Source: Candidatus Schekmanbacteria bacterium (GTDB taxonomy: Bacteria > CSSED10-310 > JACPHN01). Taken from it: a stretch of 45,828 bases of DNA. A program made the translations under genes and the position numbers. The notes beneath the pieces were generated by a model. The model saw only the letters and a list, made by a program, of their open reading frames with translations. It did no database searches and was not told where the DNA came from. Location of the stretch: assembly GCA_016188575.1 (NCBI GenBank), contig JACPHN010000083.1:1-45828 (forward strand), written 5' to 3'. Positions 28,094 through 34,072 of this stretch are shown one piece after another (position 1 is the first letter of the stretch; every line of letters starts with the position of its first letter).

Positions 28094-29245
28094 ATGAGCA
28101 CACTCGCACGTGAAATCGGAGAGGCCCGCGCCGCCATCCTGCCCGAACTTCACCGCAAGAGCTTCCTGACGACGCAGAGCGCCTCTCCGGCCGAGCTCGA
28201 GGCGCTGGTGGCACTCGCGGAGCTCTTCGCGAAGCTGGATCGGCGCGGCCTCAAGTCGTCCCTGTTCGAGGCCGAGCTCGCCTATGCGCTCTTTTTCGAC
28301 AACTCCACGCGCACGAAGTCGGCCTGGGCCGGAGCCACAGCGCGTCTCGGCATGCGTCCGGTGATCGTCGATGGGGGTTCCACGCAGGTAGCGCACGGGG
28401 AAACCGCGCGCGAGACCGGCGTCATGCTCGGCATGAACGCCCATGCGCTCGGCGTCCGGCACGATCTGATCCTCGGCGAGGGAAACCGCTTCATGGTCGA
28501 GATGCGGGCGGGTCTGGACGCCTACCTCGAGGCCACCGGAGACCGGAGAGCCGTGCCGATGGTCAACCTACAATGCGACGTCGACCATCCGACGCAGGCG
28601 CTCGCGGATCTGGCCTGGATGACGGAGTGTTTCCCCGAAGGACTCCGCGGCAAGAAGGTCGCTGTTTCTTGGGCCTACTCGCCGAGCTACGCCAAACCGC
28701 TCTCGGTCCCGCAGGGGCTGATCAGTCTGCTCACGCGGTTCGGAGCGCACGTCGTCCTGGCGCATCCCGCTGGCTACGATCTGATGCCGGAGGTCGTGAG
28801 CTGGGCCGAGGGCAATGCGCGTGGGGCGGGTGGCAGCTTTTCGCAAGTGACGTCGATGGACGATGCCTTCGCGGGCGCGCACATCGTCTACCCCAAGAGC
28901 TGGGGTCCGTACGAGCTGATGCTCGCCCGCGTCGACGCGAATCGCGCCGGTGACAAGGCAGCGATGGCCGAGATCGAGCGCCAGGCGCTCGCCCGAAACG
29001 CCGAGCACCGCGACTGGATTTGTGATGGCCGTCGGATGGCCCTCACCGCCAGCGGCAATGCGCTGTACATGCACTGCTTGCCCGCCGACATCGGCGCGGA
29101 AGTCAGCGCGGAGGTGATGCGGAAGTACGAGGTGTCGCTCGCCCGGCAGGCCAACAAGAAAGTGTACGTGATCATGGCGCTGCTGGCGGCGGCCAAGACC
29201 GCGGGTCTCGAAGCGCGCCTCGACGCCGTGTTGCAGGGGGAGTAA
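28094..29245 (+). CDS. ygeW: knotted carbamoyltransferase YgeW (aspartate/ornithine carbamoyltransferase superfamily)
   Basis: Long stretches recall E. coli YgeW: 'NSTRTKSAW', 'QVAHGETARETG', 'MVNLQCDVDHPTQALADLAWM', 'GKKVAVSWAYSPSYAKPLSVPQGLISLLTRFGAHVVLAHPAGYDLMPEVV', 'GGSFSQVTSMDDAF...IVYPKSWGPY', 'ALYMHCLPADIG'. Start at ATG 28094 with an AGGAG Shine-Dalgarno site; the longer ORF would overlap the tRNA. Confidence 0.85.
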   Translation: MSTLAREIGEARAAILPELHRKSFLTTQSASPAELEALVALAELFAKLDRRGLKSSLFEAELAYALFFDNSTRTKSAWAGATARLGMRPVIVDGGSTQVAHGETARETGVMLGMNAHALGVRHDLILGEGNRFMVEMRAGLDAYLEATGDRRAVPMVNLQCDVDHPTQALADLAWMTECFPEGLRGKKVAVSWAYSPSYAKPLSVPQGLISLLTRFGAHVVLAHPAGYDLMPEVVSWAEGNARGAGGSFSQVTSMDDAFAGAHIVYPKSWGPYELMLARVDANRAGDKAAMAEIERQALARNAEHRDWICDGRRMALTASGNALYMHCLPADIGAEVSAEVMRKYEVSLARQANKKVYVIMALLAAAKTAGLEARLDAVLQGE

Positions 29246-29249
29246 TACC

Positions 29250-31151: not shown

Positions 31152-33116
31152 ATGAACCTGTCCGCACACAGCTCGGAGCTGCATCCACTCCCTTTGTCGC
31201 TGCTGATGACGCGGCTGGCCGATGACCTCGAGGCAGGCGGTGCTGTTTTTGGCCTTGCCCGCAAGGATTGGTGGCTGCCCCAGCCCGGCATCGACGTGTC
31301 GATCGAGCACGTGGGAACCCGGATCGCCACGCCGGCCGGGCCGGCTTCCGGACCGCACACCCAACTCGCGCAAAACATCGTGCTCGCATGGCTCGCGGGT
31401 GCGCGCTTCATCGAGCTCAAGACCGTGCAGATCCTGGACGAGCTACGGATCCCGCGCCCGTGCATCAGCGTTCCGCACGTGGGGTACAACGTGGAGTGGT
31501 CCCAGGAGCTACGCGTCCACCAGTCGGCAAAGGAATACGGCAAGGCCTGGTACCTCTTGCATGCCATGCTCGCGGCGGGGCAACCTCTTCCCTTGTCGGA
31601 AGCCGGATGCGCATTTGACATGAGCGTCGGCTACGACTTGCGCGGCATCAGCGACGAAAAGGTGGATGCCTTCATCGAGACGATGAAGGATGCCGGAGAC
31701 CTCCTGGAGGCGCTGCGCGCCGAGCTGCGCGCCGAGCTGCCGCGGCGCTATCGCGCCTTTGCCGACGTGGCGCCGCCGAGGGCGATTAGCGGCTCGGTCA
31801 CGCTCTCCACCTTCCACGGCTGCCCGGCGCACGAAATCGAGGCCATCGCCTCTCACTTGCTCCTGGCCAAGCACCTGCACACGGTGATCAAGCTCAACCC
31901 GACGCTGATCGGTTTCGAGCGCTGCCGGCACATTCTCCACGACGAGCTCGGGTACGACCAGATCGCACTGGATCGCGCGCCCTTCGAGAAGGACTTGCAC
32001 TGGGATCAGTTGCTGGACATGGTGCCGCGGCTGCGCGCGCGCGCGGCCAACGCCGGCTTGCATTTCGGCGTCAAGCTATCGAACACCCTGGTCATGCAAA
32101 GCCCCGAGCCCCCCTTCGGTTCCGGTGAAATGTATCTGTCAGGAGCACCGTTGCACGTCATCGCCCTGACCTTGGCCGGCGAGCTCCGCCGCGCGGTCGG
32201 CCCCGAGCTGCCCATCACCTTCAGCGCTGGCGTCGACGCGGACAACTTCCACGACTGCGTGGCCGCGGGTATGGGGCCGGTAACAAGCTGCACGGACTTG
32301 CTCAAGAACCGCGGCTACGCGCGACTTTCGCGCTACCTCCGAAACCTGGAAAAGCGCATGGCAGACGCTGGTGTGCGCACTGTCGGCGAGCTGCGGCGGC
32401 AGGTGGACGCGGATTCGGGTGCCGGCAGCCGCTATCTGGAGGGACTCCCGGCGCAAGCCATCGCCAGCCGGCGCTATCACCGCGAGGCCAACCGCAAGCC
32501 GCCGCGGAAAGTGGGCTCCACGCTGCAGCTCTTCGACTGCCTGACGTGTGACCTGTGCATTCCGGTGTGCCCGAACGCCGCCAACTTCACTTTCGCGGTG
32601 CGCGCTGGCGAGTGCTCGCCGGGCCGCGCGACGTGGCGCGAGGACGGCGCCATCGAGCTGCATGCTGGCGCCACGCTGCGCGTGGAAAAGCGGCATCAGA
32701 TCGGCTGCACCGCTGATCTTTGCAACCAGTGCGGCCAGTGCGACGTCTGGTGCCCGGAAGAGGGCGGCCCGTTTCTCGCCAAGGCGAACGTGTTCGTTAC
32801 GCGCCGGGCCTTCGAGGATCGCCCGGAACGTGCGGGTTTCTGGATCTCATCCGACGGGCTCACGGTGGAGTGGCGCCGCGCAGGCGAGGATATGGCACGC
32901 CTCGAGCTGCGCAACGATGGCGAGGAAGCGCTCTTCTCGCTGCCCACCGGGACGCTCCGCCTGCGCGGCGTGTTGCCCATCACCGCCACGGGCCGCGGCG
33001 ACGTGGACCTGACCGTGCCACTGACGATGCATCTCGTGCTTGACGCGGTCACCGCGGCGGGAGCCGGAGGCTGGCTCGCCCGGGCCAAACCTCCGCAAGG
33101 TGCGGCACCGGTATGA
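31152..33116 (+). CDS. dihydroorotate/dihydropyrimidine-dehydrogenase-like TIM-barrel protein with C-terminal 2x[4Fe-4S] ferredoxin domain (PreA/YgfK-N-terminal-like)
   Basis: C-terminal cluster motifs 'CLTCDLCIPVCP' and 'CNQCGQCDVWCP'. The N-terminal half has DHODH-like elements ('FIELKTVQ', 'TFSAGVDADNF'). The family assignment is inferred and not certain. Confidence 0.5.
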   Translation: MNLSAHSSELHPLPLSLLMTRLADDLEAGGAVFGLARKDWWLPQPGIDVSIEHVGTRIATPAGPASGPHTQLAQNIVLAWLAGARFIELKTVQILDELRIPRPCISVPHVGYNVEWSQELRVHQSAKEYGKAWYLLHAMLAAGQPLPLSEAGCAFDMSVGYDLRGISDEKVDAFIETMKDAGDLLEALRAELRAELPRRYRAFADVAPPRAISGSVTLSTFHGCPAHEIEAIASHLLLAKHLHTVIKLNPTLIGFERCRHILHDELGYDQIALDRAPFEKDLHWDQLLDMVPRLRARAANAGLHFGVKLSNTLVMQSPEPPFGSGEMYLSGAPLHVIALTLAGELRRAVGPELPITFSAGVDADNFHDCVAAGMGPVTSCTDLLKNRGYARLSRYLRNLEKRMADAGVRTVGELRRQVDADSGAGSRYLEGLPAQAIASRRYHREANRKPPRKVGSTLQLFDCLTCDLCIPVCPNAANFTFAVRAGECSPGRATWREDGAIELHAGATLRVEKRHQIGCTADLCNQCGQCDVWCPEEGGPFLAKANVFVTRRAFEDRPERAGFWISSDGLTVEWRRAGEDMARLELRNDGEEALFSLPTGTLRLRGVLPITATGRGDVDLTVPLTMHLVLDAVTAAGAGGWLARAKPPQGAAPV

Positions 33117-34072
33117 AGGCGAGCACGTCGCGCCAGGGCCGTTCCGCCTACCGCCGGCGCGCTGTCGTGGCGCGCGTCACTGTGCTCCTGCTCCTGCTCC
33201 TACGCGTGCCGGCACCGGCGGCCCACGCCCAGACGCGTCCCGCGACGAGCTCCGGCGAAATCGTCTACTACTTCCCGGATACCGTCGGCAAGGATCTGTC
33301 CAAGATCGCCAGCAACTTCCAGGCCTGGGCGAATGAAGGGCTGGTGCCGGCACTCGGCTACCCCGTGCAGGTGCGGTACTTCAGGCGAATGCAGGACCTC
33401 GTCGCGCACATGACCGATACCCTGGCGAGGAAGCAGCTCCCGGTATTTGCCGCCATGCACGCTGAGGTTGCCCTGGAGAATCGCCACCTGTGGAACCTCG
33501 AGATGAAAGCCTTCGCGATCACCGAAGAAGACATCCCCTTTCATCGGATCAGCATTGCCGTCCGGCGCGATTCTCCGATCCAGTCGCTGGCGGATCTCGC
33601 CGGCAAGACGGTCATCGGGTGCGAGTACTGGACCGAGAACCTGCGCCGATTCGAGCGGACGGTGCTGGGGGGGGCGCTGCAAGTCAAGCAACTGGCCAAT
33701 CTCGAGCCGAGCCCGTCGTCCATTTCCGCGATCATGGGTGCCTACTACAAGTCAGCGGATGCTGCACTCGTGTCGAGCCGTGTGTTCAATGTATTGCGAC
33801 AGCGTTCTGCCGGAGTCTGGCGGTCGATGCGCATCGTGCACGAATCAAAGCCGCTGCCGGTTGCCTTCGCCGTATTCTTCGCGGGCCAGGATCCGCGGGA
33901 GCGCGCCATCACCGTGAAGAGTGCGCTGGCCGCCCACACGATTCCCGCCGGCAAAATCTACTTTGACTACGTCAAGCTCAAGCGTATGGAGGCCGGCACC
34001 TGGACAGACGTGTTCACTGCCCAGGATCTTGCGGAATCCGCGCAGGAAACAGCGACGACGAGGAGCGAGTAG
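33113..34072 (+). CDS. secreted PhnD/SsuA-like substrate-binding protein, paralogue B (translationally coupled to the upstream Fe-S protein gene, ATGA overlap)
   Basis: Signal peptide 'VTVLLLLLLRVPAPAAHAQ'. Paralogous to the 22386-23348 product. Confidence 0.55.
   Translation: MKASTSRQGRSAYRRRAVVARVTVLLLLLLRVPAPAAHAQTRPATSSGEIVYYFPDTVGKDLSKIASNFQAWANEGLVPALGYPVQVRYFRRMQDLVAHMTDTLARKQLPVFAAMHAEVALENRHLWNLEMKAFAITEEDIPFHRISIAVRRDSPIQSLADLAGKTVIGCEYWTENLRRFERTVLGGALQVKQLANLEPSPSSISAIMGAYYKSADAALVSSRVFNVLRQRSAGVWRSMRIVHESKPLPVAFAVFFAGQDPRERAITVKSALAAHTIPAGKIYFDYVKLKRMEAGTWTDVFTAQDLAESAQETATTRSE

Follow-up and report, generated by a model that had tools for sequence, protein, structure and literature searches.

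The ygeW-like, ygeY-like and short ygfK genes of a Candidatus Schekmanbacteria contig and their relation to the reductive purine pathway

The reductive urate (2,8-dioxopurine) pathway was reconstituted by two studies in 2025 (PMC12507026; bioRxiv 10.1101/2025.04.24.650524; commentary in PMC12990295). Urate is converted to 2,8-dioxopurine by XdhD (or XdhAC) (PMC12507026; bioRxiv 10.1101/2025.04.24.650524), the ring of which is reduced by YgfK in an NAD(P)H-driven reaction (PMC12507026; bioRxiv 10.1101/2025.04.24.650524; PMC12990295). Opening of both rings follows, by SsnA and then by HyuA, and yields 2,3-diureidopropionate, of which YgeW phosphorolyses one ureido group, and the carbamoyl phosphate yields ATP through the carbamate kinase (CK) YqeA. 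The other ureido group is hydrolysed by YgeY, and YgeX converts 2,3-diaminopropionate to pyruvate (PMC12507026; bioRxiv 10.1101/2025.04.24.650524). A PydA-like protein with flavin mononucleotide (FMN) and Fe-S clusters, UacX, which has no flavin adenine dinucleotide (FAD) domain, replaces YgfK in C. difficile (PMC12507026). Homologues of YgeW, YgeY and YgfK are encoded close together in the 45.8-kb stretch analysed here, positions 1-45,828 of contig JACPHN010000083.1 from a metagenome-assembled genome (MAG) labelled Candidatus Schekmanbacteria bacterium (hereafter the window, to which all positions refer unless another contig or locus is named). On balance, and with modest confidence, we read this region as a detached, rearranged and intact sub-cluster of an environmental variant of the reductive purine/urate pathway, whose partner genes would lie elsewhere in the genome. 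An earlier note on this DNA had hoped that the locus would help to find the YgeW substrate; this aim has been overtaken, 2,3-diureidopropionate having been assigned in 2025 (PMC12507026; bioRxiv 10.1101/2025.04.24.650524).

Three enzymes related to YgeW, YgeY and YgfK

The gene set consists of four open reading frames (ORFs) that run in one direction:

28094-29245, + strand, YgeW-like knotted-type carbamoyltransferase, 383 aa (NCBIfam profiles, 3Q98 match)
29250-30788, + strand, long YgeY-like M20 metallo-amidohydrolase, 512 aa (NF009555; Pfam M20_dimer and Peptidase_M20)
31152-33116, + strand, short YgfK, 654 aa (TIGR03315, AlphaFold2, Foldseek)
33113-34072, + strand, secreted PhnD/SsuA-family solute-binding protein, 319 aa (PF12974; ATGA overlap with the ygfK stop codon)

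All three enzyme ORFs are full length, without frameshift or truncation, and their conserved motifs are intact. The YgeW, YgeY and YgfK lineages assigned to them in the earlier note are borne out by profile scores, by the match to the structure 3Q98 and by alignments with the E. coli proteins.

For the product of 28094-29245, the YgeW models score best (NF005538, 393 bits; TIGR03316, 369 bits), followed by the model for N-acetylornithine carbamoyltransferase (156 bits). They far outscore the models for ArgF and PyrB, the ornithine and aspartate carbamoyltransferases (84-114 bits), and hence the YgeW assignment stands against the canonical ArgF/PyrB affiliation that the earlier note had considered as the alternative. 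The structure of E. coli YgeW, 3Q98, is matched over the full length (367 bits), and the alignment to this knotted structure (residues 17-391) suggests that the trefoil knot is present. The HPTQ and HCLP motifs are kept, and an STRTK motif occurs in all five environmental YgeW-like proteins that were aligned (that of the window and four others), whereas the E. coli protein has STRTR. Sequence identity amounts to 46% with E. coli YgeW and to 64-70% with the YgeW-like proteins of the complete environmental clusters described below. Both scores lie below the equivalog cut-offs (393 versus 453 bits for NF005538 and 369 versus 500 bits for TIGR03316). The enzyme is predicted to phosphorolyse the ureido group of 2,3-diureidopropionate, or of a close analogue, to carbamoyl phosphate.

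The best model for the product of 29250-30788 is that of YgeY (NF009555, 192 bits, with the next best at 61 bits), the profile alignment spanning only model positions 100-350. The scores are again below the curated cut-offs (192 versus 321 bits for NF009555 and 167 versus 321.5 bits for TIGR03526), and identity is only 29% with E. coli YgeY but 59-63% with the 503-513-aa forms of the complete environmental clusters. The blocks GHSD, GRGAADQ, EEDNDG, SCHGS and GPG..NTH align between the window protein and E. coli YgeY, and it is in these blocks that the metal-binding and catalytic residues of M20 enzymes are expected. The enzyme is predicted to hydrolyse the remaining ureido group. PDB sequence searches with this protein and with the short YgfK returned spurious ribosomal S13 matches or none.

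By its alignments, the product of 31152-33116 is a YgfK that lacks the central GltD-like FAD/NAD(P)H module. YgfK is the sole NCBIfam model matched, over positions 3-452 of the 1012-position TIGR03315 (425 bits; cut-off 835). The protein aligns to residues 5-406 (42% identity) and 898-980 (29% identity) of E. coli YgfK, of which the central ~490 residues have no counterpart, and it is therefore more than an N-terminal fragment. The earlier comparison with the N-terminal part of YgfK thus holds for the lineage but not for the extent of the protein, since residues 898-980 also align. Two CxxCxxCxxxCP motifs, C463-C473 and C524-C534, are invariant across 65 homologues. More than 100 columns are invariant among these homologues, including C104, C224 and the eight cluster cysteines, and the window protein keeps all of them. 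C224, which stands in a 'GCP' context, would correspond to the catalytic-cysteine loop of dihydropyrimidine dehydrogenase (DPD) and dihydroorotate dehydrogenase (DHODH).

An AlphaFold2 model built with the 65 homologues (pLDDT 88.7, pTM 0.92) has its best Foldseek match in pig DPD (E ~1e-11, probability 1.0), with DHODHs next. The modelled fold is a DPD/DHODH-like TIM barrel, which by analogy would bind FMN, and residues ~545-635 form an additional C-terminal beta domain in the model. The DHODH-like protein with two [4Fe-4S] motifs that had been noticed in the sequence is thereby supported by the Foldseek matches and the invariant CxxCxxCxxxCP pair. An ordinary class-1 DHODH or PreA, the alternative named at the time, is not what was found: the profile places the protein in the YgfK lineage, and Pfam PF01180 (DHO_dh) does not match it at E <= 0.01. 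We predict that the short YgfK is an Fe-S-fed dearomatising reductase of a dioxopurine-type ring.

Environmental short-YgfK clusters and the missing partners

The short-YgfK family is large, with 7,783 proteins at E <= 1e-10 in a word-index search, the best 120 of which are nearly all 590-670 aa long, and a relative is encoded in at least 567 metagenome stretches. For comparison, 90 non-redundant short-YgfK loci were assembled and partner genes were mapped in them by tblastn. Frequencies are given for the 27 of these loci that have 6 kb or more of sequence on either side; K, W and Y denote YgfK, YgeW and YgeY, XDH stands for xanthine dehydrogenase, and PLP (pyridoxal phosphate) for a CysK-like 453-aa enzyme:

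SsnA-like, 74%
XDH-like, 67%
CysK-like PLP (453 aa), 48%
YgeW and YgeY, 30%
CN-hydrolase in place of YgeW/YgeY, 19%
K alone, 3 of 27 loci
YgeW/YgeY without SsnA, XDH or PLP, 0 of 27 loci
PhnD-like binding protein, 0 of 27 loci

At least one of the SsnA-like, XDH and CysK-like PLP genes is nearby in 85% of the 27 loci, while a HyuA homologue is found in three and YgeX in one. A GltD-like (PreT-type) module is encoded near the short ygfK gene in only one of the 90 loci. Three arrangements recur. The first (as in L011, L012 and L019) has K, an ATGA-coupled PLP gene, SsnA-like, CK, W and Y, together with an XDH-like gene in divergent orientation and, in most cases, a ThrC-like PLP gene; the second has SsnA, K, XDH, a 360-aa unknown protein, W and Y; and the third has XDH, ThrC-like, PLP, SsnA, K, W and Y. 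Five loci (L003, L007, L011, L012 and L019) combine the short YgfK with CysK-like PLP, SsnA-like, YgeW-like, YgeY-like and XDH-like genes, and most of them also have CK (or the Pfam-less 360-aa protein in its place) and a ThrC-like PLP gene. The conserved cluster lies at the following positions of four loci:

L007, 3601-15538
L011, 10001-21890
L012, 10001-21911
L003, 3559-14660

In L007, the XDH-like protein surpasses the cut-off of the selenium-dependent XDH model TIGR03311 (913 bits), the amidohydrolase matches the SsnA model (344 bits), and the kinase is a carbamate kinase by NCBIfam. The XDH-like protein of the conserved cluster has no FAD subunit. We found no description of the environmental short-YgfK cluster in the literature searched, and neither a truncated YgfK, Myxococcota, Acidobacteria nor cysteine- or threonine-synthase-like partners are mentioned in PMC12507026, bioRxiv 10.1101/2025.04.24.650524 or PMC12990295.

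The window contains the same three subfamilies as these clusters, at 52-70% identity, and shares with them the adjacent W-Y pair in the same order. It differs from them in that the PLP, SsnA, CK and XDH genes are missing, in that W-Y lies upstream and not downstream of K, and in that the gene after K is that of a binding protein and not the PLP gene. Across the whole 45.8 kb, tblastn and a Pfam survey detected no homologues of ygeX, xdh, ssnA, hyuA or carbamate kinase, nor did tblastn detect a gene for the CysK-like PLP enzyme, in keeping with the lack of the usual partners pointed out in the earlier note. This search reached 28 kb upstream and 12 kb downstream of the gene set.

An isolated trio of this kind could be a remnant that has lost its SsnA, XDH, PLP and CK genes and is either decaying or repurposed for another ureido or heterocyclic compound. 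Such a history would agree with the partner-free surroundings, with the W-Y-K order on one strand, which is unique to the window and seen in none of the 90 loci, and with the 'K alone' loci that exist in the clade of the window's YgfK. It would also agree with the best 120 SsnA-like homologues, among which no protein bears the MAG's taxon label. However, the reading frames are undamaged, the short YgfK keeps every family-invariant residue, and the YgeY blocks and YgeW carbamoyl-phosphate motifs are kept. Neither the spacers nor the DNA under the binding-protein gene contain pseudogene remnants of PLP, SsnA, CK or XDH genes. Furthermore, a genome of the same clade has its partners 33 kb from K: on the 306-kb ENA contig NODE_129311, K of locus L005 (83673-85589) and a PLP-SsnA pair (L096, 47656-50357) lie on the same strand at this distance, which shows that the gene set can be split along the chromosome within this clade. 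We therefore regard a remnant or repurposed trio as unlikely, while leaving it some weight.

The window's YgeW and YgeY are 59-70% identical to their counterparts inside complete clusters, and a neighbour-joining tree (no bootstrap) places its YgfK in a clade of K-PLP-SsnA(-CK-W-Y) loci; both observations, like the intact reading frames and the split seen for L005, speak for a detached but working part of the pathway. If the window holds such a part, as we prefer, the short YgfK would pass electrons through its two [4Fe-4S] clusters to FMN and reduce the dioxopurine ring. As the protein lacks an NAD(P)H/FAD module, it would need an external electron donor, which could be ferredoxin or a molybdenum/Fe-S partner; UacX, which replaces YgfK in C. 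difficile, is a functional precedent for such a reductase. Using phosphate, the YgeW-type enzyme would then cleave 2,3-diureidopropionate at one of its ureido groups to form carbamoyl phosphate, and the long YgeY-type hydrolase would remove the second to give 2,3-diaminopropionate. The intermediate steps would need an SsnA-like amidohydrolase, entry a selenium-type XDH and exit PLP enzymes, which would have to come from elsewhere in the genome, as their genes are absent from the window.

Several observations weigh against this preferred reading. The partner genes were not found in the one contig of the MAG that was examined, and the missing taxon label among the SsnA-like homologues also counts against it, if weakly. 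All three enzymes score below the curated equivalog cut-offs, so that their substrates need not be the same as those of the characterised enzymes. The environmental clusters almost always lack HyuA and YgeX, and the environmental pathway may therefore differ chemically from that of E. coli. Finally, the ATGA coupling of ygfK to the binding-protein gene could be a real functional link.

The binding protein, the spacer and the borders of the gene set

The stop codon of ygfK overlaps the ATG of the binding-protein gene (ATGA). The encoded protein starts with a signal-peptide-like sequence and matches PF12974 (Phosphonate-bd, 39.3 bits; cut-off 27), both of which it has in common with PhnD proteins of ABC transporters. 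On the PhnD subfamily model TIGR01098, its 21 bits fall far short of the cut-off of 112. The earlier note took the locus for an unusual variant that could help to assign the YgeW substrate. Spelled out, this would be a self-contained variant in which the binding protein captures or senses a substrate that the trio processes, and it could reveal a new substrate of YgeW-type enzymes. The ATGA overlap, which is real and unusual as the note had said, and the likely secretion of a PF12974 protein speak for this proposal, as do the STRTK motif and sub-cut-off scores of the environmental YgeW-like proteins, which make some divergence in specificity possible. On the other hand, the window encodes no ring-opening amidohydrolase that would join the reductase to the ureido-cleaving steps, and the Pfam survey found no ABC permease or ATPase genes in it, including those of the phnC/phnE type. 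A PhnD-like neighbour occurs in none of the 90 short-YgfK loci, and it is the CysK-like PLP gene to which ygfK is joined by such an ATGA overlap in other loci. The relatives of the binding protein found by a word-index search of 5.8 billion proteins are three paralogues that carry the same MAG label (41-43% identity) and lie in unrelated contexts. One of these, in L013 (55-3833) from the same sample, is ATGA-coupled to an sCache-HAMP-HisKA-REC-guanylate cyclase sensor, so that, as a difference from PhnD proteins, one paralogue pairs with a sensor kinase. The canonical YgeW substrate, moreover, is already established.

Taken together, a self-contained variant appears quite improbable to us. Since its relatives are limited to same-label paralogues, the adjacency of the binding protein to ygfK looks secondary, and since the ATGA junction leads to the PLP gene elsewhere, we consider the binding-protein gene a secondary replacement at the ygfK junction that left no trace of the former neighbour. 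The binding protein is thus unlikely to give a clue to the substrate. An origin of the binding-protein N-terminus from the replaced PLP gene was rejected, as the two show no similarity. A further paralogue (37% identity) is encoded within the window 10 kb upstream, at 22359-23348 on the + strand, and is followed by a 706-aa secreted protein without Pfam match (23405-25525, + strand).

The order on the + strand is tRNA-Pro(GGG), terminator, ygeW-like gene, ygeY-like gene, 363-nt spacer, short ygfK and the PhnD-like gene, and the features that separate and border the four ORFs are:

27713..27787, + strand, tRNA-Pro, anticodon GGG (ARAGORN; Rfam RF00005, 57.9 bits)
27798..27830, + strand, intrinsic-terminator-like hairpin of 9 bp (6 GC pairs) followed by a T8 run, which ends the tRNA transcript
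30789..31151, + strand, structured spacer of 363 nt (folding energy; REP-like palindrome)
34192..36714, + strand, gene for an 840-aa protein like the major vault protein (MVP) (Pfam MVP_shoulder, 104 bits; Vault_3, 36 bits)

The tRNA, the terminator, the four ORFs, the ATGA overlap and the MVP-like gene had all been located correctly in the earlier note, and the gene set does begin after the tRNA gene and its terminator and end at the MVP-like gene. The tRNA-Pro gene is a marker of the upstream border without a functional tie to the cluster.

The further suggestion that the cluster is a horizontally acquired island, integrated at tRNA-Pro, does not hold up. It draws on a start ~300 bp after the tRNA gene and on the nearest YgeW/YgeY relatives, which belong to other phyla (Acidobacteriota, 63-70% identity; a marine alphaproteobacterial MAG, 59-64%) and suggest an old lateral spread of the pathway. 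Against it, the window contains no second copy of the 30-nt tRNA-Pro 3' end that would form a direct repeat, and no integrase or transposase is found among the ORFs annotated between 1212 and 45717. Composition is indistinguishable from the flanks: GC content is 0.64-0.68 across the cluster as in its surroundings (62-73% throughout the window), GC content at third codon positions is 0.80-0.84 in the cluster genes, their relative synonymous codon usage correlates with that of the window at 0.90-0.96 (0.94-0.96 for the three enzyme genes, 0.73-0.95 for other genes), and the tetranucleotide correlation is flat along the window. The spacer also bears the genome's own repetitive extragenic palindrome (REP)-like element, which recurs at four other intergenic sites, so that a repeat is common to the cluster and the remainder of the contig. 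The cluster is resident DNA; a tRNA-linked genomic island was rejected for lack of a repeat, an integrase and atypical composition, and we give it hardly any credence.

The 363-nt spacer between ygeY and ygfK has a folding energy of -160.5 kcal/mol (z = -3.2 versus shuffled sequences) and forms several stable hairpins. The REP-like GC-rich palindrome CTCCCCCCGCTTGCGGGGGGAG lies in it at 30879-30900 and is present in five intergenic copies in the window, with none expected by chance:

1049-1070, intergenic, REP-like palindrome
27468-27489, intergenic, REP-like palindrome
30879-30900, intergenic, REP-like palindrome in the ygeY-ygfK spacer
38539-38560, intergenic, REP-like palindrome
43327-43348, intergenic, REP-like palindrome
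25603-25644, weaker copy

Some copies stand between convergent genes, and the element may thus act as a bidirectional terminator, or it may be a dispersed repeat of the genome. Its hairpin explains at least part of the spacer structure, and the spacer probably separates two transcription units, ygeW-ygeY and ygfK with the binding-protein gene. A riboswitch or leader RNA was rejected: Rfam has no match in the 5' region of either ygeW or ygfK, even at E <= 1, and the main hairpin of the spacer is the dispersed REP-like repeat. The spacer has no similarity to the regions upstream of ygfK in the other loci.

Upstream, the opposite strand carries the gene for a GAF-sigma-54 activator, which the tRNA gene separates from ygeW. 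This is reminiscent of E. coli ygeV, which also encodes a sigma-54 activator upstream on the opposite strand; however, the likeness between YgeV and the window activator is confined to the generic AAA+ domain (30% identity), and no sigma-54 promoter (GG-N10-GC with fewer than 5 mismatches) precedes ygeW or ygfK in the window. The activator ORF as called (25650-27746, - strand, 698 aa) crosses the tRNA-Pro gene and a REP-like element, and the true start is probably near 27356 (MDGLLRL...), giving ~568 aa.

The remainder of the window encodes signalling, TPR/HEAT and envelope proteins according to the Pfam survey. A 748-aa protein (7921-10167, + strand) has multiple HEAT repeats fused to a C-terminal cyclophilin-type peptidyl-prolyl isomerase domain. 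The product of 34192-36714 is a bacterial homologue of the eukaryotic major vault protein, and 3' of its gene lies that of an acidic 560-aa protein without Pfam match (36832-38514). The NCBI label 'Candidatus Schekmanbacteria bacterium' stands beside a window GC content of ~66%, named Schekmanbacteria genomes bear 38 or 48 in their names, probably their %GC, and the window genes (TPR, HEAT, DUF4388, sigma-54 activators, alkaline ceramidase, MVP) look myxobacteria-like. The taxon label may be wrong.

Significance and comparison with known systems

On its own, the window contributes little, being an incomplete and rearranged version of genes for which the core chemistry became known in 2025. Its worth is that of a pointer to a large environmental family of YgfK-type proteins without NAD(P)H module, and the environmental cluster as a whole, which includes two PLP enzymes not used by the gut pathway, is the more interesting lead. 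We tentatively hypothesize, with less than even confidence, that the short YgfK and its YgeW and YgeY subfamilies mark an uncharacterised NAD(P)H-independent 2,8-dioxopurine pathway that is widespread among bacteria of soils, fresh water and the sea. Such a pathway may be carried by MAGs labelled Myxococcota, Acidobacteriota and Rickettsiales, the FAD-less selenium-type XDH and the short YgfK might exchange electrons directly, and the CysK-like and ThrC-like PLP enzymes might replace HyuA and YgeX. If this is true, the window shows that the module can be split across a chromosome. Were the environmental version functional, reductive purine degradation would be ecologically much broader than the gut and would use another route of electron delivery, which bears on the physiological donor of the pathway's redox enzymes.

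Among the described systems, the cluster of E. coli and Clostridium (xdhD-ygfM, ygfK, ssnA, hyuA, ygeW, yqeA, ygeY and ygeX) has three homologues in the window, from which five of the eight functions are missing. The YgeW-like protein lacks an insertion that the E. coli enzyme has near the HCLP motif, in addition to the change from STRTR to STRTK, and the YgeY-like protein is 110 aa longer than E. coli YgeY, with several insertions. While E. coli YgfK contains an NAD(P)H/FAD module, that of the window does not. The latter is in this respect comparable to PreA, the FMN/Fe-S subunit of the E. coli PreT-PreA dihydropyrimidine dehydrogenase, and to the C-terminal half of mammalian DPD, which likewise combine an FMN-type TIM barrel and two [4Fe-4S] clusters with no NAD(P)H site of their own. 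However, identity to DPD and DHODH is only 14-18%, the likeness being at the level of the fold, and the extra C-terminal beta domain sets the short YgfK apart from PreA and DPD. Clostridial UacX is, like the short YgfK, an FMN-type and Fe-S enzyme without NAD(P)H site.

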